Positions 690 through 15,449 of a stretch of 64,000 nucleotides of DNA are shown one piece after another. The notes under the pieces are model-generated. The model worked only from the letters and a program-made list of their open reading frames with translations, had not been told where the DNA came from and ran no database searches. The translations under genes and the position numbers were made by a program. The number at the start of each line of letters is the position of its first letter. The stretch's first letter is position 1. The DNA comes from a phage: the sequence record PZ386974.1; one strand, given 5' to 3'.

Positions 690-1322
690 TCACAGTACGT
701 TAGTTACAAGGGTAATGATTTCTTTGGACACATTAGGGAAGTCAATGTAAGTATATTTACCACCGATCTTAATCTTAACATCATTTTCAAGAGAAGTAAA
801 CAGCTTTGATTCAGTTTCTGACATGTTGTATGCAAAGATTCTAAGAGAACCATCTCGACGAATTTCGATCTGACGAATACCTAGAACTCGTTTAGCGAAT
901 CGAACTTCTAAGTTACTACGGTTTTCACCAATTTCTTTAACTTCAACTTTATCTTTAATATTTTCAAAAACAAAGTTTGCTAATTCATGCATTTCAGGAG
1001 TAACTCCACGTGCTTTTCTAGTGTTACGTTTCTGAAGAAGTTCTGGAGCATTTTCTTGGGCAAAGAGGTCTGCAGCTTTTTGGATAATATCCATTGCTTC
1101 GCCTGTTGCTACAAGTCCATCACCGGATTTTTCGACTAAACCTTTCTTAATCAATACACCAATGTTAGAGTTAACAACCGATGCATTGTATTCTGCTTCC
1201 AGAGCTTCACGGACATTGGCAGCAGTGGTGAAGTTGTTCTTAATGATATAAACCATTATTGCAGCAGTTTTTTCATTCAGAGCGTTTTCAGAAGCTTTGA
1301 TGATGTAAGTAACTTTAGACAT
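690..1322 (-). CDS. motA: MotA-like middle transcription activator
   Basis: 210 aa; N-terminus MSKVTYIIKAS matches recalled T4 MotA; located beside gene 52 as in T4; GGAGA SD. Confidence 0.75.
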   Translation of the reverse strand: MSKVTYIIKASENALNEKTAAIMVYIIKNNFTTAANVREALEAEYNASVVNSNIGVLIKKGLVEKSGDGLVATGEAMDIIQKAADLFAQENAPELLQKRNTRKARGVTPEMHELANFVFENIKDKVEVKEIGENRSNLEVRFAKRVLGIRQIEIRRDGSLRIFAYNMSETESKLFTSLENDVKIKIGGKYTYIDFPNVSKEIITLVTNVL

Positions 1323-1828: not shown

Positions 1829-3154
1829 TCAAAGTGCCTCCAAGTCTTTAGTGTACTCGGTCACAACATCAGTAGACTTCCAATACTCATTTTCTTCTTT
1901 CTTAGCTTTAGCTTCTTCTGCTAGTTTACGTGCTTCGTCGGAAGTGATATGGAAGATGTTAAGACCTACCAGTTTATCGACATGTTCTTTATACATTTCG
2001 ATTTGTGCTAGCTCTTCAGTCAAAGCTTTACGAGTCTTGCCCTGAATCACAATTTCACCTGTAATAACTTTTTTGATGAAGTGTGCCTTAGCAAAAGCCA
2101 GTTTAAATGCTTTTTCAGATTCAAGGATTTTGTTGTCAATACGTTTCTGAACGTAAGTCTTACGGACTTCAACAAAATCTTTGATTAAGTCCACTACGTT
2201 ATCGTAGACAGCTAATTTACCCTTTTCATTAATCACTGTGATGTTTTGAGAACGGCGTTCGATGAGACTAAAATCTTTCATGATTTTTTCATGACGTAGC
2301 TCTTCATCATCAGGAAGCGAGTACTCTTTACGGAACTTCACTTTAAACCCAAAGCCGTGTTCACCACAATCATCTTCCCAAGAGATTAGACCTTTGTCTT
2401 CCAACGGGTCAAGAACCTTACTCACATACGTTTCACGGTCGAATTTATATGGGATTTCAGTTATCTGCATTTGAGTGCGAGATGTGAACTTATATGTTCC
2501 GTGAATCTCATAACGCCCATCAACTTCATGTACTTCACCACGGAATTCCGGGAATTCAACTTTTGGCTTAGTGACATTTTTACCTTGAAGAGCTTGTAAT
2601 ACAGCCTTTTTGACTGATTTAAAACTATGAGGCAGAATATTTGTTGCGTAACCGGTTGCAATACCAGAAACACCATTCAAAAGAACTGTCGGAATAATAG
2701 GAAGATAGAATTTTGGTGGAATGTGTTCTTTATCTTCATGAGCTGGAGCATATTCAGTATCTTTATATACGTTATAGAAATTTTTACTTACACGAGCAAA
2801 AATATAACGAGATGCTGCAGCTTTTTGGACTGTTCTAGAACCAAAGTTGCCTTGGCCATCTAACAGTGGATAGTTGTTGTTCCATGTGTTAGCCATCAAT
2901 GCACCTGCATCTTGTGCAGAAGATTCACCATGGTGATAACCTAAATCTGCAACACCACCTGCAATTGACGCAAGTTTATGAAATTTTTCTTTATTACCAC
3001 GAGCCAAATCTAACGCACGATGAACCACAAAACGTTGAACCGGCTTAAATCCATCAATCATGTTTGGGATTGCACGGTTTTCAACGGTGTACATCGCATA
3101 TGCTAAGGCTTCGTTATCAATAATACTTTTTAGATTACGAGAATTCAATTGCAT
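1829..3154 (-). CDS. 52: DNA topoisomerase II medium subunit (GyrA-like)
   Basis: 441 aa; N-terminus MQLNSRNLKSIIDNEALAYAMYTVENRAIPN matches recalled T4 gp52. Confidence 0.9.
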   Translation of the reverse strand: MQLNSRNLKSIIDNEALAYAMYTVENRAIPNMIDGFKPVQRFVVHRALDLARGNKEKFHKLASIAGGVADLGYHHGESSAQDAGALMANTWNNNYPLLDGQGNFGSRTVQKAAASRYIFARVSKNFYNVYKDTEYAPAHEDKEHIPPKFYLPIIPTVLLNGVSGIATGYATNILPHSFKSVKKAVLQALQGKNVTKPKVEFPEFRGEVHEVDGRYEIHGTYKFTSRTQMQITEIPYKFDRETYVSKVLDPLEDKGLISWEDDCGEHGFGFKVKFRKEYSLPDDEELRHEKIMKDFSLIERRSQNITVINEKGKLAVYDNVVDLIKDFVEVRKTYVQKRIDNKILESEKAFKLAFAKAHFIKKVITGEIVIQGKTRKALTEELAQIEMYKEHVDKLVGLNIFHITSDEARKLAEEAKAKKEENEYWKSTDVVTEYTKDLEAL

Positions 3155-3497: not shown

Positions 3498-3944
3498 TTA
3501 GTAACTCTGCAGAATGAATTTGAAATTATCTGCCAGAAGACGGTTCATTTCAGTGAGTGTTTGATATTCTGATGTATGGTTGCGAGTGAATGCCAGAGCC
3601 AATTGTCCTTTACCATAACCAGTAGTCAGTGGTTTCATGTTCTTAGCTGCAACAAAGATTACATCATATTCAATATTGTTAGTGCCCATGGTACGGGCTA
3701 GTTGCGAACGGCCTTGACGAATGTGAGAAAGAATTGCATCCAACCCTTGTTTAGAACGTTGACGTCCTACAAAGAATCGTGCTGCTACTTGTCGCCAATC
3801 AGATGAACCTTTAACAAAGAAGTAAAAACCTTCGCGAGAACGAAACTCTTTAGAAACTTCAGAACCGTATTCGCCATTACGAACTACTGCAACAACTTCA
3901 CCACCAACTGCCAGAAGGTCTTTACGAGTTAAATATTTGGACAT
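3498..3944 (-). CDS. ndd: possible Ndd nucleoid-disruption protein (148 aa)
   Basis: Size and position (clockwise of 52) match T4 ndd; ATG with GAGGAA SD; identity not verified by alignment. Confidence 0.4.
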
Positions 3945-5624: not shown

Positions 5625-6560
5625 TTATTCTGCAAACAATTCAGTAACGTCTGAAATTACTTCATAACGACATGTACGCATCTTAGCATCACCATAGTCA
5701 ACTGGGATGGACACAACATCACGTGGATGAACTTTAACCTTAACAACTTTATCTGAGCTAGAACCAAAGTAACGAATATATGATTTAGCACAAACATGTA
5801 GACCGCGAGAACAAGTTTGTGTATCATCGTCGTTAACTCGAGTACGAGGCATTGAAACAACTTTACCTGGGGAGTTATCAAATGTACCACTATAGCAGTC
5901 TAAATAGTCCTTACGAACTACTTTCCACGCATAGAAATGACCATCTTCAGTGATTTCAATATCGTTTGCAACCAAGAAGTCGAATAAACGTTGTACAGCT
6001 TTTTCGCTTGGGTTTTCTAACAGGTTTTCAAGGAATGGCAGATAGAATTTAAAGTCTTCACCTTTTTCCATGGAATCAATAATACGGTTAACCAGCCCTG
6101 AACGAATCTCTATACCTTGATAAAATAAACTACCACCTTCAATAGTAACATTACCATCAACAAACTTAGTAATAGCTTTCTTGACGTTAATAAGTTCGAC
6201 AGCTTTACTAAGGTTTCCTGCGACCAAATTAGCTTTAATTTCTTCAAAATTTGCATGACTTGATGGGGTCGCATTGTATGCTACGCGTCCTTCAATGATT
6301 GAGATAAATTTAGATGACGCGTTCCATACGATTTCTGGACGATGTCCGCCGATAATAGGTTCATCATTTTCTGGGACCTGTTCTTCGTCTTCAAATTCAG
6401 CTGCTTTCTCTTCAGCTTTAAAATTCTTAACAATCTTACGAAGAGTATCTGTTGAAATGTCGAAGTAATCGGCAATTTCTTTACGGGTCCATTTGCCTGA
6501 TTTGACCAGGTCGTAAGCTTCTAACTGTTCTTCTTGGGACAAGCATTTGATATTGTACAT
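5625..6560 (-). CDS. rIIB: rIIB membrane-associated protein
   Basis: 311 aa; N-terminus MYNIKCL matches recalled T4 rIIB; adjacent to rIIA. Confidence 0.85.
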   Translation of the reverse strand: MYNIKCLSQEEQLEAYDLVKSGKWTRKEIADYFDISTDTLRKIVKNFKAEEKAAEFEDEEQVPENDEPIIGGHRPEIVWNASSKFISIIEGRVAYNATPSSHANFEEIKANLVAGNLSKAVELINVKKAITKFVDGNVTIEGGSLFYQGIEIRSGLVNRIIDSMEKGEDFKFYLPFLENLLENPSEKAVQRLFDFLVANDIEITEDGHFYAWKVVRKDYLDCYSGTFDNSPGKVVSMPRTRVNDDDTQTCSRGLHVCAKSYIRYFGSSSDKVVKVKVHPRDVVSIPVDYGDAKMRTCRYEVISDVTELFAE

Positions 6561-6569
6561 AATGTTTCC

Positions 6570-8783
6570 TTATTTGGCCGCTTCCACGGCCTTCATGAAT
6601 TTAACGATTTGAGCGACCTGTTCTTTAGAAAGAGTACCACGTCGTCCCATGTATTCTGACACAATATGATAATTGGTTTCAAATTCAATAACCATTTTAT
6701 CATCATTATCGTAAGCATTATCTTTAAGCTTATCGAAAATTTTAGCACACAATTCTAACTTCTTATTCAGATCTCTGTTAGTAGCACCTGAGAATCGATT
6801 CCATCCCCAACGATTATTTACTGTTGAAAGTTTTGCAAAATCTTTACTGATTTCTTTGTTCTTAGAGCTAAAATACTTACTAAGGAAGTTGAGCTCTTCA
6901 TTACGAGTAATATGATTCAAATAAGGCTGTGCTCTACGACTTGGTGATACATACTCATCATAATCTACTTTATCGATTAGCATAATATAGTCATTAATTG
7001 ATTTTTCAAACAAACATTCTACTTCACCAAGTTTACGAACTTTCTTAGCAATCTGTGGACGGACTACAGTGAACTCTTTAATACCTGACAAATCAGCAAT
7101 ACGGGTCAAGAAATTGGAGTCATAGTTCAACCAACCTTTATCTGCGTCAAGACATTCAGCATTAGAACGATTACGAACTATAGCATAACCTTGGATTTCA
7201 TCAGCTTCACTCGCCGGAATAAAGAGATCTTCTGATACCCAAACATCGTTTTCATTCTTAAAGAACCGATGAGCACTCGGGGATTTAGGACGAGGCCCAT
7301 TAGAACGAGTCTTGACTTCAATCCATGGCTTAACGATTTGTAAAAGCTCTGAAGTCTTGTACATGTTAATGTTGTCGCCATCAAAGATAACTTTAAGGCG
7401 TTCCAGAAGTTTCATTGCGTCTTCGTCTGTAGGGTCAACGAATAGTACGCTTTTACCAAAACCACGTGGGACTTTACCGGTTAATTTAACCTCGTCTTTA
7501 GACATTTCAATTGAATTAAGAGCTCGCATTAATGGAACACGTCCCTTAACGTCATCAATAACAATTTCAACGTTTTTAATGTTAATGCCAATCAGACTGT
7601 TAATTGAAATAGTTGCAGATGAGCTACCACTTTCACGAATACGACGAAGACGAGGGTCTTCAATGATATCGTATACGACGCCGAGATTACACCATTCGGG
7701 TCCCATTTTAAAACGTTTGTACAACTCAGAATAAGTTAGTTGTTCTTTAGAATATTTCAGAGATTCAATATTAGACCCAGCCTTTTCCATGTATTTGCGA
7801 GCGGTATAGCCAAGAGAATCAATTTCACGGAACACATGGCGCGGGTATTTACAATCAATCCATTTCTTAGAATCTTCAGCGAACAATTTAGCATCGATTT
7901 CTGCAACGCGTTTATGGATATTTGCTACTGTACGTTTATCAAATGACAATGCTTCACGAGACGGGGCTACATCTAGTTCACCCATAGGGAATTTAATATA
8001 AGCTGTAGTGCATCGCGTCATCATCCATGTTTGTTCTTTAATAACACTTCCGATTGGATATACAATACCACCATAAACAGCCATGATATTACCACGTTCA
8101 CCCCATGGAGCTTCCTTGGCCAAATATACATCGTCAAATTCAGGGAAGTATTTGATATCTTTAACACCGCGAACTTCTGCAATATCACCTAGAGGACGCA
8201 TAACATATGCAATTTCAGATGCGAACTTTTCAAAATCTTCTGGGTTAACCGGTACAACTACTTCTACACCCGTACGGTCATCAGGGCCCATCTTATCTAC
8301 GAAGGTTGGCTTAATCTGTGGACCACTGTCATCTTGATAAATTACATAACCACGAACTTCACCGTTGTGATAAGATGTAAGGTTAAACGTATCGGTATAT
8401 GCTAGTGGAGCTTTAGAGCCGAGTCCGAATCCACCAATGAAATCGTTACTCGATGTTTTAGTTGAAGCAAAATATGAGTTATAGATTCCTGGCTCTTCGT
8501 CATTACCTCGAATGGTGAAATCACTCATACCAGGACCAAAGTCTCGAACTACAAAACGCGGGTCTAAACGACCTGGAGCCTGAACAATAAACTTATCAGT
8601 GCAACCATTAAGAATTTGTCCATCGATACAGTTTGTGATTAATTCACGTACACAAGCCAATTCTTTGTTTGTATAAAGGTCATTAGACAAAATCTTATAA
8701 ACTTTGCTATTGCCTTGAATAGTAAATGCTGTGCTCTTACCGCCTGAACCAATAATCGTTTCTTTAGCCGTTTCAATAATCAT
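6570..8783 (-). CDS. rIIA: rIIA protein
   Basis: 737 aa; N-terminal region with DLYTNK...RELITN...PGRLDPRFV...DFGPGMS matches recalled T4 rIIA. Confidence 0.85.
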   Translation of the reverse strand: MIIETAKETIIGSGGKSTAFTIQGNSKVYKILSNDLYTNKELACVRELITNCIDGQILNGCTDKFIVQAPGRLDPRFVVRDFGPGMSDFTIRGNDEEPGIYNSYFASTKTSSNDFIGGFGLGSKAPLAYTDTFNLTSYHNGEVRGYVIYQDDSGPQIKPTFVDKMGPDDRTGVEVVVPVNPEDFEKFASEIAYVMRPLGDIAEVRGVKDIKYFPEFDDVYLAKEAPWGERGNIMAVYGGIVYPIGSVIKEQTWMMTRCTTAYIKFPMGELDVAPSREALSFDKRTVANIHKRVAEIDAKLFAEDSKKWIDCKYPRHVFREIDSLGYTARKYMEKAGSNIESLKYSKEQLTYSELYKRFKMGPEWCNLGVVYDIIEDPRLRRIRESGSSSATISINSLIGINIKNVEIVIDDVKGRVPLMRALNSIEMSKDEVKLTGKVPRGFGKSVLFVDPTDEDAMKLLERLKVIFDGDNINMYKTSELLQIVKPWIEVKTRSNGPRPKSPSAHRFFKNENDVWVSEDLFIPASEADEIQGYAIVRNRSNAECLDADKGWLNYDSNFLTRIADLSGIKEFTVVRPQIAKKVRKLGEVECLFEKSINDYIMLIDKVDYDEYVSPSRRAQPYLNHITRNEELNFLSKYFSSKNKEISKDFAKLSTVNNRWGWNRFSGATNRDLNKKLELCAKIFDKLKDNAYDNDDKMVIEFETNYHIVSEYMGRRGTLSKEQVAQIVKFMKAVEAAK

Positions 8784-8795
8784 ATTTTTCTCTCA

Positions 8796-8996
8796 TCACA
8801 AGTTACGTTTAAAAATTTCTGCTACTTCAAGAAGTTCTTCTTTAGTAGCTGTATCGGTTTGTATTTTATATCGAATTTCTTTAAAGCGTTCTTTAAAGGA
8901 CTCTGCTGACTCGATATCAAAAAATCTTTGGATAAGCCGGAATTCCCGGAGCACTGCTTTATCAAAAAGTTCCAAGTCCACGTTATATGTTCTCAT
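8796..8996 (-). CDS. hypothetical protein (66 aa; rIIA.1 position)
   Basis: ATG start; positional equivalent of T4 rIIA.1. Confidence 0.45.
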   Translation of the reverse strand: MRTYNVDLELFDKAVLREFRLIQRFFDIESAESFKERFKEIRYKIQTDTATKEELLEVAEIFKRNL

Positions 8997-9088: not shown

Positions 9089-10189
9089 TTACGCTGTGAA
9101 GATTTTATCCCACATCGCAACAACTGCATCTCGATTATACTTCTTCCATACTGCTTCAGCACGTTTAACTCGAGCTTCGTATGTGTCAGTGAATTCTAAT
9201 ACAGCTTTTGTGTAAAGCGCAACTACTTCTTTCTTAGGAGTAGAGGAATCAATTTCTACACGCACAGTATCTGGGTCATATTCGAATGTCGCGTGCGGAT
9301 AATCCTTAAAAACTAACTGGATTACAGGGACACCTTTAGAGATGGCTTCAATAGAACTATTCTCTACCGTACCTGTGTCAGGACACGTATTAATAAGTGC
9401 TTTAGCTGTTTTAAGACGTTCCATAATTTCACTGTGTGGAGCATCAATAATAACAGGATATTTAGCCGGTGGTGCCCATTTACTAGGACAGTATCCTACA
9501 CCATTTTCGCCTAGTGCTTTAATCGCTTCAAGAGCAACATCAGTACGACGCATTTTAGTGTCATAACGTTGTGCACTAATAATCAGATCAGTCGCCGGAA
9601 GAACTTCAGGTTTCTCATTCAAACAAATAACCGGATAATCTTCGGCTTCAAACAACGGATTTGCTCGCCAATAATCATAATCAATTTTGTCAGTCAGACC
9701 CGAAGTCATATAACAATATTTACGTTCAAATTCACGGAAGGCTTTAGTAGGAGCATAACTCTTACCACCATTCTTATGAATTTGAATAGTCTGGTCCCAA
9801 ATTTGAACAATGCCACGAGATACCGGTTCAAATGGTGTTGCCATAAAATTCTTATGAACTTTAGAGAGACCTGCGTCTTTAATTGCCTGAACGGTTAGTT
9901 TGGTCGGTTCCATTGTAACAACGAAATCATACTCATTAATGCCGGCTAGTTCAACAATCTTACGAGCCATAGTATAACTCATACCTAGACTGAATTTAGT
10001 CAGATGACCAACAGGATGATGATTAACTTTCCAATCACCAAATGTGTCATTATCAAAACCGATATAATCAATATCGGCACCGATGGACACAAGATATTTC
10101 AACACATTTAAATGTACTGCTTCAAGACCACCTTGTACACGTTCTGGGTTAAATGGGACTGCGCGAGATGGGATAAACATAACTTTCAT
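9089..10189 (-). CDS. GT-B fold glycosyltransferase, candidate hmC-DNA pentosyl(arabinosyl)transferase
   Basis: 366 aa; C-terminal segment TGTVENSSIEAISKGVPVI resembles GT4-type donor-binding motif; sits where T4 has gene 60/mobA. Confidence 0.6.
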   Translation of the reverse strand: MKVMFIPSRAVPFNPERVQGGLEAVHLNVLKYLVSIGADIDYIGFDNDTFGDWKVNHHPVGHLTKFSLGMSYTMARKIVELAGINEYDFVVTMEPTKLTVQAIKDAGLSKVHKNFMATPFEPVSRGIVQIWDQTIQIHKNGGKSYAPTKAFREFERKYCYMTSGLTDKIDYDYWRANPLFEAEDYPVICLNEKPEVLPATDLIISAQRYDTKMRRTDVALEAIKALGENGVGYCPSKWAPPAKYPVIIDAPHSEIMERLKTAKALINTCPDTGTVENSSIEAISKGVPVIQLVFKDYPHATFEYDPDTVRVEIDSSTPKKEVVALYTKAVLEFTDTYEARVKRAEAVWKKYNRDAVVAMWDKIFTA

Positions 10190-10200
10190 AATTAAGCCTT

Positions 10201-10233
10201 ATTAAAATTAAAATGAAGCTCCCGAAGGAGCTT
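10201..10233 (-). terminator. intrinsic terminator, UUCG-tetraloop hairpin AAGCTCC/GGAGCTT plus U-rich tail
   Basis: Overlaps gene 39 stop codon. Confidence 0.5.
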
Positions 10234-12049
10234 AGGACATCCATTCTTTACGAAGTTCTGAATCATCACCCATCAACATTTCAAAGAGTTCTTTCCAATT
10301 TTCAGGAAGTTTAACTACGTCGTACACAGGGTTCTGAATCATTTCACGATATTCTGACTTTTCAAGGGAGCCTAATCCCTTGATGTATCGAATACTATGC
10401 TTAGGCAGTGTATATTTAACTTCTTCATACTCAGCTACAGTATAAAACCATTTTTGAGTTTTGCCAATTTGTGCAATAATTACAGGTGTTTTAACAAAGC
10501 GAATACGTCCTTGTTCAAACAATTCAGGCCAATTACTAAAGAAAGCAAGCAAAGCTGGATAAATGCTTCCAAGACCGTCATGATCGGCATCAGTCATAAT
10601 TGCAATATTACGATAGTTCGTATTCTCTGCCTTTTCACCAAGAATAAGACCTGTGATAGCACAGATATCAAAGAGCTCTTTGTTCTTCATCATATCAGCA
10701 TATGACATACCCCAGCTATTCATCACCTTACCACGTAATGGGAATCCACCATGTAGTTCACGGTCACGAACATCAATGAGATAACCAATTGCCGAATCAC
10801 CTTCTGTTAAGAACAATGTCGTATCTGCATCTTTACCACATTGGTTAGCTTTAATATGCTTATGAACCTTAGCTTTAGTTGCCTTTTTAGCTGCTTTAGT
10901 TTCTGCAGCCTTTTCTGCCGCCAATTTACGAGCTAATGCTGCTTCAACAATAGGCATAATCAAGGCTTCGTTTTTAAGAAGTGCCTGAGCAATTTTCTTA
11001 GCATCTAATTGGATATGATTACGAATATCACCATATGTTGACGTTAAACGTTCTTTAGTCTGAGAATCAAAACGCATGTTGCTCATGTCTCTAATAAACA
11101 TCAACATTGTGAGACATTCTTTAACACGAGCTTTAGTGACTTCAATACCCTTATATTTCTTTTTAATACCGGGCAAAAGATGTTCGCAGATATCATCCAT
11201 TACACATTCAACATGATGACCACCATTTTTAGTATGGATGTTATTCACATAAGTTAAATGACGGAAGCCATCTGGTGATGTTGTGAATGCTATAGAGACT
11301 TTATCATTTTCTTGAATGATGTTATCTTCGCCAAATTGTTTAGCAAATCGTTTAAAATTACCATCAACCTTTTTACCATTAAATGTGAACTTGATATCAG
11401 GATAAACGACTGCCAACGTTTGAAGTCGGTCTAAAGTAATATCTAAATAAACTTGAGATAAATTATGCTCTTCAAATGAAGAGAAATCAGGAGTGAAGAT
11501 TACTTTAGTGCCTTTACCTTTAGATTTCTTAGAAGACCATGATTTGTTTTCCATTCCGTTTGAACAGTTAACAGTGATTTCATTTTCGCCATCTGACGTG
11601 ATGCCTGTAAACAACGTAGAGAAGATATTAGTTAAACTACTCCCGACGCCGTTCATACCACCAGTCTTGCGTTCAGAGTCATCACCAAAGTTACCACCGG
11701 CCTTTGGAATAGTCCAGGCTGCTACAGGCCCAGGAATTTGTTCACCTGTTTGGTCTGTAACTAAACCTTGAGGAATACCACGTCCGTTATCTTCCACCGA
11801 AACTTGATTATTTTTAATTTGCACATCAATTTTATTTGCAAACTTAAATGATGTACGAATAGCTTCATCAACCGAGTTGTCAATAATCTCATCGATTAAT
11901 TTAACCAGACCAGGAACATATTCAACTTGCTGATATTTACCAAACAAAAAACGCTCATGTGCTTCTTTGGCCGAAGAACCAATATACATACCACTGCGTT
12001 TCTTAATATGTTCTACATCTGACAATACCTTAATTTCATTTTTAATCAT
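10232..12049 (-). CDS. 39: DNA topoisomerase II large subunit (GyrB-like), unsplit
   Basis: 605 aa single ORF; N-terminus MIKNEIKVLSDVEHIKKRSGMYIGS matches recalled T4 gp39; GAGGAGA SD. Confidence 0.9.
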   Translation of the reverse strand: MIKNEIKVLSDVEHIKKRSGMYIGSSAKEAHERFLFGKYQQVEYVPGLVKLIDEIIDNSVDEAIRTSFKFANKIDVQIKNNQVSVEDNGRGIPQGLVTDQTGEQIPGPVAAWTIPKAGGNFGDDSERKTGGMNGVGSSLTNIFSTLFTGITSDGENEITVNCSNGMENKSWSSKKSKGKGTKVIFTPDFSSFEEHNLSQVYLDITLDRLQTLAVVYPDIKFTFNGKKVDGNFKRFAKQFGEDNIIQENDKVSIAFTTSPDGFRHLTYVNNIHTKNGGHHVECVMDDICEHLLPGIKKKYKGIEVTKARVKECLTMLMFIRDMSNMRFDSQTKERLTSTYGDIRNHIQLDAKKIAQALLKNEALIMPIVEAALARKLAAEKAAETKAAKKATKAKVHKHIKANQCGKDADTTLFLTEGDSAIGYLIDVRDRELHGGFPLRGKVMNSWGMSYADMMKNKELFDICAITGLILGEKAENTNYRNIAIMTDADHDGLGSIYPALLAFFSNWPELFEQGRIRFVKTPVIIAQIGKTQKWFYTVAEYEEVKYTLPKHSIRYIKGLGSLEKSEYREMIQNPVYDVVKLPENWKELFEMLMGDDSELRKEWMS

Positions 12050-12090
12050 GTTGTCTCCTCGTTATGAAGGTATTCTATCATCCGAAATCT

Positions 12091-12112
12091 AAAGCAAAAA
12101 GGGCCGAAGCCC
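12091..12112 (-). terminator. intrinsic terminator, UUCG-tetraloop hairpin GGGC/GCCC plus UUUUU
   Basis: Between 39.1-position ORF and gene 39. Confidence 0.5.
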
Positions 12113-12535
12113 TTATTTAAATTTAATTTTCTGAAGTGCATCAATTGCAGCCAAACGCCCTTGTTCACTTTTAACTGTAATGACCACATCGCCTGATACG
12201 ATCACCGAACCATCAACAAATTCTATAGAGCCTTTTTTGAAATCGACAGCTGTATCTGGTTCCGGAACTTCTTCAAAGAATTTAAATTCTGCACCATAAA
12301 GCAGAATATCACCTTGCATACTAATGATTGTACGTCCAGGTCCATCGGTTTCAGCGGCAATCATTGAAACACCGTAACCAATCATCTCTTCTACAATAAA
12401 ATCTCTTGATAATAAAACTGTATGCAGAGTAGTGTTAAGACGTTTACCAGTTGTATTAAGAATTCTCAAGAAATTATCTTCTTGACCTTTGATAATACGA
12501 TATTTCTTACCAACTTCAAAACCTTTAAAAGCCAT
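12113..12535 (-). CDS. hypothetical protein (140 aa; 39.1 position)
   Basis: ATG start; followed by UUCG-loop terminator. Confidence 0.5.
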   Translation of the reverse strand: MAFKGFEVGKKYRIIKGQEDNFLRILNTTGKRLNTTLHTVLLSRDFIVEEMIGYGVSMIAAETDGPGRTIISMQGDILLYGAEFKFFEEVPEPDTAVDFKKGSIEFVDGSVIVSGDVVITVKSEQGRLAAIDALQKIKFK

Positions 12536-12537
12536 AA

Positions 12538-12717
12538 TTAACCCTTCTTAAGTAAGTCGTAAAAACCACCGTTCACATGTTTAGGAGCAGAAACCCGACG
12601 AGTAGACAGACGATGACATTCAGGGCAAACATCGTTTTCTCGTTCAGAAATCCTTTTAATTTTTTCATATTCATGGCCACAATCTTCAGATTGGCATTTA
12701 TAGTCGTATAACGGCAT
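12538..12717 (-). CDS. FmdB-like zinc-ribbon protein (59 aa), below track threshold
   Basis: Translation [59 protein letters not shown]; two CxxC pairs; TAATG-coupled to upstream ORF. Confidence 0.45.
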   Translation of the reverse strand: MPLYDYKCQSEDCGHEYEKIKRISERENDVCPECHRLSTRRVSAPKHVNGGFYDLLKKG

Positions 12718-13998: not shown

Positions 13999-14418
13999 TT
14001 ATGCGAAAGCCGCTGGGCTATATTTTTTAATTTGGAATTCAGGAACTACCATGAACTGTCCAGCAAAAACAATATTGTAGAGCTTGACGCCATCTTCTAT
14101 CCAACGGTCGCTAATAAATCCGGCGATTTGCTTAGTTTTCCATGGCGTTCCATCAGTTGCCGCAGCAATAGTGAATTCATGGTCTTTTTCAACAGAAACT
14201 GATCTGCATAGTCCCCATTTGAACGCACGTTCTTCTGGCTCAATGAACTGGCTTGAGACGTAGCCAATATTACCATTGGCATCACGAACTTTAACTTGGT
14301 TACGACCAAAAACCGGATCACTCACAGAAAGAACTTCAACCAACTTCCCGGCAACTTTAGAGCGAGAAGCAACAGATACATATACGTAATCACCTGTAGA
14401 GAGATTTACAATATTCAT
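13999..14418 (-). CDS. hypothetical protein, tandem paralog family member A (139 aa)
   Basis: Shares C-terminal motif GFISDxWIEDGxKLYNIVFxGxF with next two ORFs. Confidence 0.5.
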   Translation of the reverse strand: MNIVNLSTGDYVYVSVASRSKVAGKLVEVLSVSDPVFGRNQVKVRDANGNIGYVSSQFIEPEERAFKWGLCRSVSVEKDHEFTIAAATDGTPWKTKQIAGFISDRWIEDGVKLYNIVFAGQFMVVPEFQIKKYSPAAFA

Positions 14419-14427
14419 AATAATTCC

Positions 14428-14892
14428 TTAAGCTTTACGAGGAGACACATAGCGAGTGATTTCAGATTCTTTAACAACTCGGAAGTCACCTAAGAATACG
14501 ATATTGTATAACTTTTCACCATCTTCAACCCATTGGTCACTAATGAAGCCACACATAGTATCAGTTTTGCTTGGATAACCGTATTCATCGATGAAGTCAA
14601 ATTCTTTATCGGTTATAAATTCAACGCCTTTGCAAAGGGCCCATTTGAACTGTGTAGTAGGCTCAACGATATCGCTTGAAGCAAAGTGGGCACTTACACG
14701 AGTTTCCAAGAATTTAGGACTTACATAGGCGAACTGAGTTTCAGTTTTTCCAGAACTAGGAATGATTCGAACTTTAACTTCTTTAATACGTCCCATGCCA
14801 TTTGTGCGAAGTCCGACAACTTCAACCAGACGACCTGCGGCTTTAGAACGGGATGCAGTTGATACACGCTTAATTTCACCAATATTAATCAT
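14428..14892 (-). CDS. hypothetical protein, tandem paralog family member B (154 aa)
   Basis: Start moved to ATG at 14892 by alignment with paralog A (MINIGEIKRVSTASRSKAAGRLVEV); track start lies in promoter element. Confidence 0.5.
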   Translation of the reverse strand: MINIGEIKRVSTASRSKAAGRLVEVVGLRTNGMGRIKEVKVRIIPSSGKTETQFAYVSPKFLETRVSAHFASSDIVEPTTQFKWALCKGVEFITDKEFDFIDEYGYPSKTDTMCGFISDQWVEDGEKLYNIVFLGDFRVVKESEITRYVSPRKA

Positions 14893-14923
14893 ATTTTTTC
14901 TCTCTTTGTTTAAATTGAATTCA

Positions 14924-14951
14924 TTATACTCCATCCATCCTTGGATGTACA
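14924..14951 (-). promoter_or_regulatory. early-type promoter cassette variant (TGTACA ... TATAAT)
   Basis: Upstream of paralog B; overlaps track-predicted N-terminal extension. Confidence 0.4.
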
Positions 14952-14954
14952 ACA

Positions 14955-15449
14955 TTAATTTAGAATATTAACCATAGCACTACGTGGAACTACACTAAAA
15001 TCACCTGCATGAACAACGTTCAGAAGTTCAACACCGTCTTCAATCCACTGATCAGTTACCCATCCACTCACTGGACCTGCGAACGGACGTCGAATTGAAA
15101 CAGCTTTACACAACAAATCAGTAGGCTCAATAGGCTTAATCAGAGTACCGTACATACAAGCGATATCCATATCAATACAGATGTCTTTAACGGGTTCTAC
15201 TTCTTCAATCAACAGTTCAAAGTCAGTGCTTGGAATGGCGGTAGTAGAAATTGTACCGTGTGAATTTTTAATTTCTAAGAATAACCAAGGGCCTTCAGCT
15301 TGTTTGATGAAGTTAACAATAGTGAAACTATTACCTTGAGTGGCACCTAAAATTTCACAAAACTTTTCATAAGCTCGCACTGAAGCACCGTACCAGTTGA
15401 TTTGTTTTTCGTCTTTCATGATGTAAGTAGCCGTAGTATTGATGTTCAT
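14955..15449 (-). CDS. hypothetical protein, tandem paralog family member C (164 aa)
   Basis: C-terminal motif WVTDQWIEDGVELLNVVHAGDF shared with paralogs A/B. Confidence 0.5.
   Translation of the reverse strand: MNINTTATYIMKDEKQINWYGASVRAYEKFCEILGATQGNSFTIVNFIKQAEGPWLFLEIKNSHGTISTTAIPSTDFELLIEEVEPVKDICIDMDIACMYGTLIKPIEPTDLLCKAVSIRRPFAGPVSGWVTDQWIEDGVELLNVVHAGDFSVVPRSAMVNILN

Follow-up and report, generated by a model that had tools for sequence, protein, structure and literature searches.

The type II DNA topoisomerase of the T-even phages, which relaxes DNA and does not supercoil it, is an A2B2 hetero-tetramer; the T2 and T6 enzymes have two kinds of subunit, whereas T4 possesses the only known three-subunit type IIA enzyme (PMC11461880). 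In T4 the large subunit is split between genes 39 and 60, and gene 60 in turn requires the translational bypassing of 50 nucleotides – facts that the original prediction for the locus described here had stated, and that agree with the T4 record and the literature. Manning & Atkins (bioRxiv 10.1101/2022.08.31.505936) attribute such splits to a MobA element of ~1.1 kb, inserted repeatedly, recently and independently into 'parental' unsplit large-subunit (Topo2L) genes, and Edgell et al. (PMC2988022) agree that MobA entered an unsplit gene. The tails at the inner ends of the two T4 proteins (the CTE of gp39 and the NTE of gp60) come, according to Manning & Atkins, from the inserted mobile element and not from the topoisomerase gene.

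Unsplit versions are equally well documented. The T6 enzyme, deposited in the 8ylu-type entries, has been solved by cryo-EM (PMC11461880), and in RB69 the gene has been annotated as '60plus39' since the genome record of 2003, which names the product 'gp60plus39 large subunit topoisomerase II' and adds in a note that an insertion in T4 splits the subunit into gp60 and gp39. We consider here the corresponding gene in a 64,000-nucleotide stretch of phage DNA (sequence record PZ386974.1; hereafter the window). Our reading, to which we give a probability of about 97%, is that it represents the gene 39 that a T4-type phage of the RB69-like group (Mosigvirus) carries, encoding an ordinary, uninterrupted GyrB-like type IIA subunit in the parental state.

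The gene 39 locus and its RB69-like surroundings

A 3.9-kb stretch around gene 39 shares 97.9–98.6% DNA identity with ~145 records of RB69-group (Mosigvirus) phages, RB69 included, and the gene order of the window – rIIA, rIIA.1, ORF003c, gene 39, ORF005c, 39.2 – is that of RB69. The genes and signals of this neighbourhood are as follows.

6570..8783, minus strand: rIIA, in the gene order of RB69
8796..8996, minus strand: rIIA.1, in the gene order of RB69
9089..10189, minus strand: glycosyltransferase of 366 aa (RB69 ORF003c/gp3), directly downstream of gene 39 and not part of the topoisomerase
10216..10233, minus strand: UUCG-tetraloop hairpin followed by a T-rich run, starting within the gene 39 stop codon and preceding the glycosyltransferase gene
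10232..12049, minus strand: gene 39 ('60plus39'), unsplit GyrB-like large subunit of the phage DNA topoisomerase II, 605 aa, ATG start, one stop
12055..12060, minus strand: Shine-Dalgarno sequence GAGGAG, 6 nt upstream of the gene 39 ATG, as read from alignment
12099..12114, minus strand: hairpin with a UUCG tetraloop and a T-run behind it, separating gene 39 from the ORF upstream, from a scan for terminator-like sites
12113..12535, minus strand: ORF005c (RB69ORF005c), 140 aa, at the place of T4 gene 39.1, directly upstream of gene 39
12538..12717, minus strand: 39.2, in the gene order of RB69

That the large subunit is encoded by a single continuous ORF of 605 aa, as originally predicted, is confirmed by the list of open reading frames, which gives exactly 10232..12049 on the minus strand, with an ATG and one stop. 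The base composition of the window predicts stops at 7.2% of codons, so that 605 sense codons in a row have a chance of ~2.5e-20 and ~3e-15 such ORFs would be expected in the whole window; the same list places two ORFs of 92–102 aa on the opposite strand inside the gene. Translation is predicted to be conventional, with one start, one stop and no recoding, and the Shine-Dalgarno sequence is conserved in T4 and T6, as GAGGA compared with GAGGAG in the window. Both hairpins flanking gene 39 are G+C-rich. Between 8700 and 12800, nine terminator-like sites were found against 2.2 expected from shuffles, while a scan for promoter-like sequences yielded no enrichment (14 found, 13.3 expected).

The RB69 orthologue (AAP75906.1) occupies the same locus and its protein is 96% identical to that of the window. 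At the start of the gene, the RB69 reference record (AY303349, 5330-5483) differs from window 11900-12049, from T4 and from T6 by indels of +2 and +1 nt and by many substitutions; confined to the first ~150 nt of gene 39, these garble aa 14–46 of the protein, including the conserved HIKKRSGMYIGS motif. Where the RB69 record deviates, the window reads like T4 and T6, and the deviation probably reflects a sequencing-quality problem of the 2003 record, in which other such errors were reported in a 2026 paper.

Further from gene 39, the minus strand between 690 and 6560 carries a usual T4-type early region, consisting of motA, gene 52, ndd and an ORF at the position of rIIB; this context confirms that the conventional 'origin' of the genome, between rIIB and rIIA, falls inside the window. 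On the other side lie three successive ORFs with the common C-terminal motif GFISD.WIEDG..LYN.VF.G.F.VVP, which look like tandem MotB-like paralogues, and two of which RB69 labels as motB and 'similar to motB'.

690-1322, minus strand: motA, in the T4-type early region
3498-3944, minus strand: ndd, in the T4-type early region
5625-6560, minus strand: ORF of 311 aa at the rIIB position, in the T4-type early region
13999-14418, 14428-14955 and 14955-15449, minus strand: the three ORFs with the common C-terminal motif

RB69ORF005c falls in PHROG 622 (unknown function), with a weak goF-like match at its C-terminus, and a Pfam search with rIIA returned no match. Where Pfam was silent (rIIA and the 366-aa ORF) or stayed under its cutoff (TOPRIM_C), PHROGs and the search of PDB sequences supplied the identification.

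Colinearity with T4 gp39 and gp60 through the junction

For comparison with the split gene, T4 gp39 and gp60 were built from the T4 reference record, with the annotated 50-nt gap taken out of gene 60. Together they cover the gene 39 protein from end to end, and the places at which T4 is interrupted can be assigned to particular codons.

10628..12049, minus strand: aa 1–474, the equivalent of T4 gp39 (79% identity to gp39 aa 1–473, blastp)
10235..10633, minus strand: aa 473–605, the equivalent of T4 gp60 (86% identity to gp60 aa 27–159, E 5e-86, blastp)
10619..10630, minus strand: codons 474–477 (A-E-N-T), where T4 gene 39 departs into its 43-aa insert-derived tail and the window continues uninterrupted
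10574..10618, minus strand: codons 478–492 (NYRNIAIMTDADHDG), corresponding to what is called 'homR' in T4 gene 60
10573..10576, minus strand: codon 492/493 boundary GGT/CTT, the place of the 50-nt untranslated gap of T4 gene 60, contiguous in the window

In DNA, window 12049-10629 corresponds to T4 5328-3911 at 74% identity (blastn). The alignment of the C-terminal region with T4 gp60 had been set beforehand as the test of the original prediction, and the similarity that it found, listed above, bears out the gp60-like character of this region; the predicted length of about 160 aa, however, needs correction. The last 43 residues of T4 gp39 and the first ~30 of gp60 have no counterpart in the window protein, and as both tails derive from the insert, the true equivalent of gp60 amounts to ~133 residues. 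The further suggestion that the gene 60 region is absent holds for a separate gene 60, for the MobA/60.1 insert and for the 50-nt gap, but not for the coding content of gp60, which is there, fused in frame.

At the codon level the window runs GGT GAA AAG GCA / GAG AAT ACG / AAC TAT CGT through the junction, that is, GEKA-ENT-NYRN, whereas T4 gene 39 diverges into its tail after GEKA and gene 60 rejoins at NY. Further on, at codons 492/493 (window 10576..10571), the sequence reads GAC GGT / CTT GGA, with nothing in between at the position of the T4 gap, which follows gp60 Gly46; the take-off GGA-UAG that T4 needs for bypassing is not found at codons 492/493, which are GGT-CTT instead.

Searches of the whole 64 kb point the same way. 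T4 gp60 (tblastn) matches only the stretch inside the gene 39 ORF, with no second gp60-like ORF; the T4 CTE and NTE (tblastn) give nothing above chance; the T4 cassette (tblastx) finds only the 20-codon stretch equivalent to homR within the gene 39 ORF, and neither a mobA gene nor a remnant of one; and the 50-nt gap sequence (blastn-short) returns only chance 11–15-mers. The window thus lacks a separate gene 60, a mobA gene and any scar, and of the components of the T4-type split with MobA and bypassing – CTE, mobA and the 50-nt gap – it contains none.

The probable parental state, its rivals and the downstream glycosyltransferase

How unusual an unsplit gene is can be judged from the 2001 phage records found with a query of 110 residues spanning the junction, a record being counted as contiguous when a single place accounts for 80% or more of the query. 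By this measure 1926 are contiguous across the junction. The insert-derived 43-aa tail occurs in 62 records, or ~3% of sequenced phages with the gene; T4 cassette DNA is present at an identity of at least 95% in ~43 records, and weaker relatives are found in Salmonella, Proteus, Acinetobacter and Shewanella phages. Many of the low-coverage matches to the cassette come from other HNH genes, mobE being one example. An unsplit gene is thus the rule, at roughly 96–97%, and T4 the exception. This reverses what the original prediction had implied – that an unsplit gene is out of the ordinary – since the unsplit form is both common and, in the account of Manning & Atkins, parental.

On our preferred reading, gene 39 of the window would represent this parental state, never invaded by the MobA homing-endonuclease element, and T4 would be the derived form, in which the element lengthened gene 39 by a tail, brought in mobA, and left gene 60 with an added head and with its gap of 50 nt. 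A close comparison is with T2 and T6, whose gp39 is likewise unsplit and 605 aa long, 82% identical to the window protein, colinear with it through the junction (with net 2 gap positions in the alignment) and built of the same domains in the same order.

A past split might nonetheless have been repaired: in a 'hit and run' course of events, MobA would once have divided the gene and later have been excised, restoring a single ORF. Such re-fusion has been proposed for one Aeromonas phage clade, in which the full-length ORFs keep CTE-/NTE-like sequence where the element had inserted (Manning & Atkins, bioRxiv 10.1101/2022.08.31.505936). In the window there are no extra residues at the site – the length is that of T2/T6, and GEKA-ENT-NYRN stands where T2/T6 read GEKA-ENL-NYHN – and the tblastn search with the T4 CTE and NTE over the whole window, described above, likewise speaks against it. 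Re-fusion that leaves a scar is rejected on these grounds of length and junction, while a perfectly scarless excision would leave no trace in the sequence; overall we regard a re-fused gene as very improbable.

The other rival concerns the gene next door. The 366-aa ORF is near-identical to PDB 9iqz_H (aa 1–366, E 7.4e-249), whose deposited name is 'Glycosyltransferase subfamily 4-like N-terminal domain-containing protein', and by this identity with a solved protein it is classed as a GT-B/GT4 glycosyltransferase; Pfam gives no match to it, and it falls in a PHROG of unknown function. RB69 ORF003c was proposed as an arabinosyltransferase by Thomas et al. 2018 (PMC6024577), and gp3 was proposed in a 2026 study as a second, beta-arabinosyltransferase acting on arabinosylated 5-hydroxycytosine DNA (PMC13326640). 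The original prediction, in which a glycosyltransferase takes the position of gene 60, was thus right about the kind of protein but not about a replacement: T2, T4 and T6 have no ORF003c/gp3 at this locus, and in T2/T6, where gene 39 is unsplit, rIIA.1 is separated from the end of gene 39 by a 54-nt spacer with no gene between. The glycosyltransferase as a substitute for gene 60 was accordingly rejected, as T2/T6 manage without any gene in the interval.

The least probable account of all is a single recombination event that replaced or remodelled gene 39, removing gene 60 and mobA and putting a glycosyltransferase gene in their place. In its favour, the glycosyltransferase gene sits in the interval from rIIA.1 to the topoisomerase gene, where T4 has gene 60, 60.1 and mobA; against it, everything that codes for the gp60 equivalent is found upstream of the glycosyltransferase gene, and T2/T6 are unsplit with no gene in that interval. 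It follows from the T2/T6 arrangement that the two differences are independent: the MobA element was a gain of T4, the glycosyltransferase gene one of the RB69 lineage, where it is an addition downstream of a topoisomerase gene that is itself complete.

The gene of the window may also be open to invasion. In T2, the nick site of MobA has been mapped to the homR region, as related by Manning & Atkins from Bonocora et al. 2011, and in the same second-hand account the point differences of the T4 copy did not block nicking, which only the 50-nt insert did. Codons 478–492 of the window match T2 at 39/45 nt, T6 at 37/45 and T4 homR at 33/45; the homing site looks intact, and the closeness to the T2 site, together with this tolerance of point differences as there related, suggests that gene 39 of the window could be a competent homing target for MobA. 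Among the close relatives (151 records, each with a single place that accounts for 80% or more of the 3.9-kb query), the T4 MobA cassette was not seen. RB69 is genetically isolated from other T-even phages, and it is conceivable, if rather unlikely, that RB69-like genes 39 are 'naive but shielded' from MobA, either by this isolation or by arabinosylated cytosines.

Domain architecture and comparison with known enzymes

The gene 39 protein matches PHROG 543 ('DNA topoisomerase II large subunit') over its whole length with E 1e-286, and PHROG 7229, the gp60-type family, over aa 452–605. Its domains, and the partner subunit encoded elsewhere in the window, are as follows.

11483..11911, minus strand: GHKL ATPase domain, aa 47–189 (Pfam HATPase_c, E 3.5e-11, 44 bits against a cutoff of 26.4), with the GHKL motifs N-box EIIDNSVDE (aa 54–62), G1 DNGRGIP (aa 87–93) and G2 GGMNGVGSS (aa 130–138)
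10895..11305, minus strand: transducer domain, aa 249–385 (Pfam DNA_gyraseB, E 2.8e-14, 53.4 bits against a cutoff of 27), with the QTK loop QTKERL at aa 330–335
10238..10822, minus strand: TOPRIM domain and C-terminal associated region, ~aa 410–604 (motifs, and alignment to ParE, GyrB and Topo II in the PDB)
1829..3154, minus strand: gene 52, the GyrA-like DNA breakage-reunion partner, 441 aa (Pfam DNA_topoisoIV, aa 27–429, E 8.2e-78)

The TOPRIM assignment follows from motifs and from alignment to solved enzymes, since the core Toprim model of Pfam has no match in the gene 39 protein at E<=0.001 and TOPRIM_C (aa 520–604) scores 26.3 bits, under its 29-bit gathering cutoff. Residues 400–604 align with the TOPRIM regions in the structures of ParE, GyrB and Topo II, and the metal-binding motifs EGDSA (aa 416–420, with the catalytic glutamate) and DADHD (aa 487–491) lie on the same polypeptide. 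The T4 split falls between these two motifs, which means that T4 builds its metal-binding site from two polypeptides; the window keeps both in one chain. With ATPase, transducer and TOPRIM regions and a gene for a GyrA-like partner, the gene 39 product has the make-up of a GyrB/ParE-like type IIA subunit.

We infer its enzymatic activity, subunit stoichiometry and evolutionary direction from the published work on T4/T6 and MobA. By analogy with the solved T6 enzyme, two copies of gp39 and two of gp52 would assemble into an A2B2 enzyme, and this gp39(2)gp52(2), as in its close homologue, would use ATP to open a transient double-strand break in one DNA duplex and pass a second duplex through it, presumably in the service of phage DNA replication.

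Among solved structures, T6 gp39 (PDB 8ylu_C) is a full-length match over aa 1–605, with 1157.8 bits, and the engineered T4 gp39-gp60 fusion (PDB 8yo3_C) aligns in two stretches around 68 unmatched residues. The TOPRIM insertion of T4, of ~70 residues, is located outside the domain and changes relaxation activity only slightly (PMC11461880). Bacterial GyrB and ParE and the N-terminal half of eukaryotic topoisomerase II share the architecture of GHKL ATPase, transducer and TOPRIM but are far more remote in sequence, with E-values from 1e-61 to 1e-37 for human Topo II alpha/beta, yeast Top2, ParE and GyrB in a search of PDB sequences.

In its unsplit form, then, gene 39 of the window is the standard version of a well-characterised gene in a well-characterised group of phages, and as such already known. 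What it offers is a clean negative control for the bypassing story of T4 – the same gene without the mobile element. T2 and T6, which belong to another genus (Tequatrovirus) and have no glycosyltransferase gene downstream of gene 39, resemble the window in keeping their large subunit whole, and the comparison recalls that in this respect the model phage, T4, is the odd one out.
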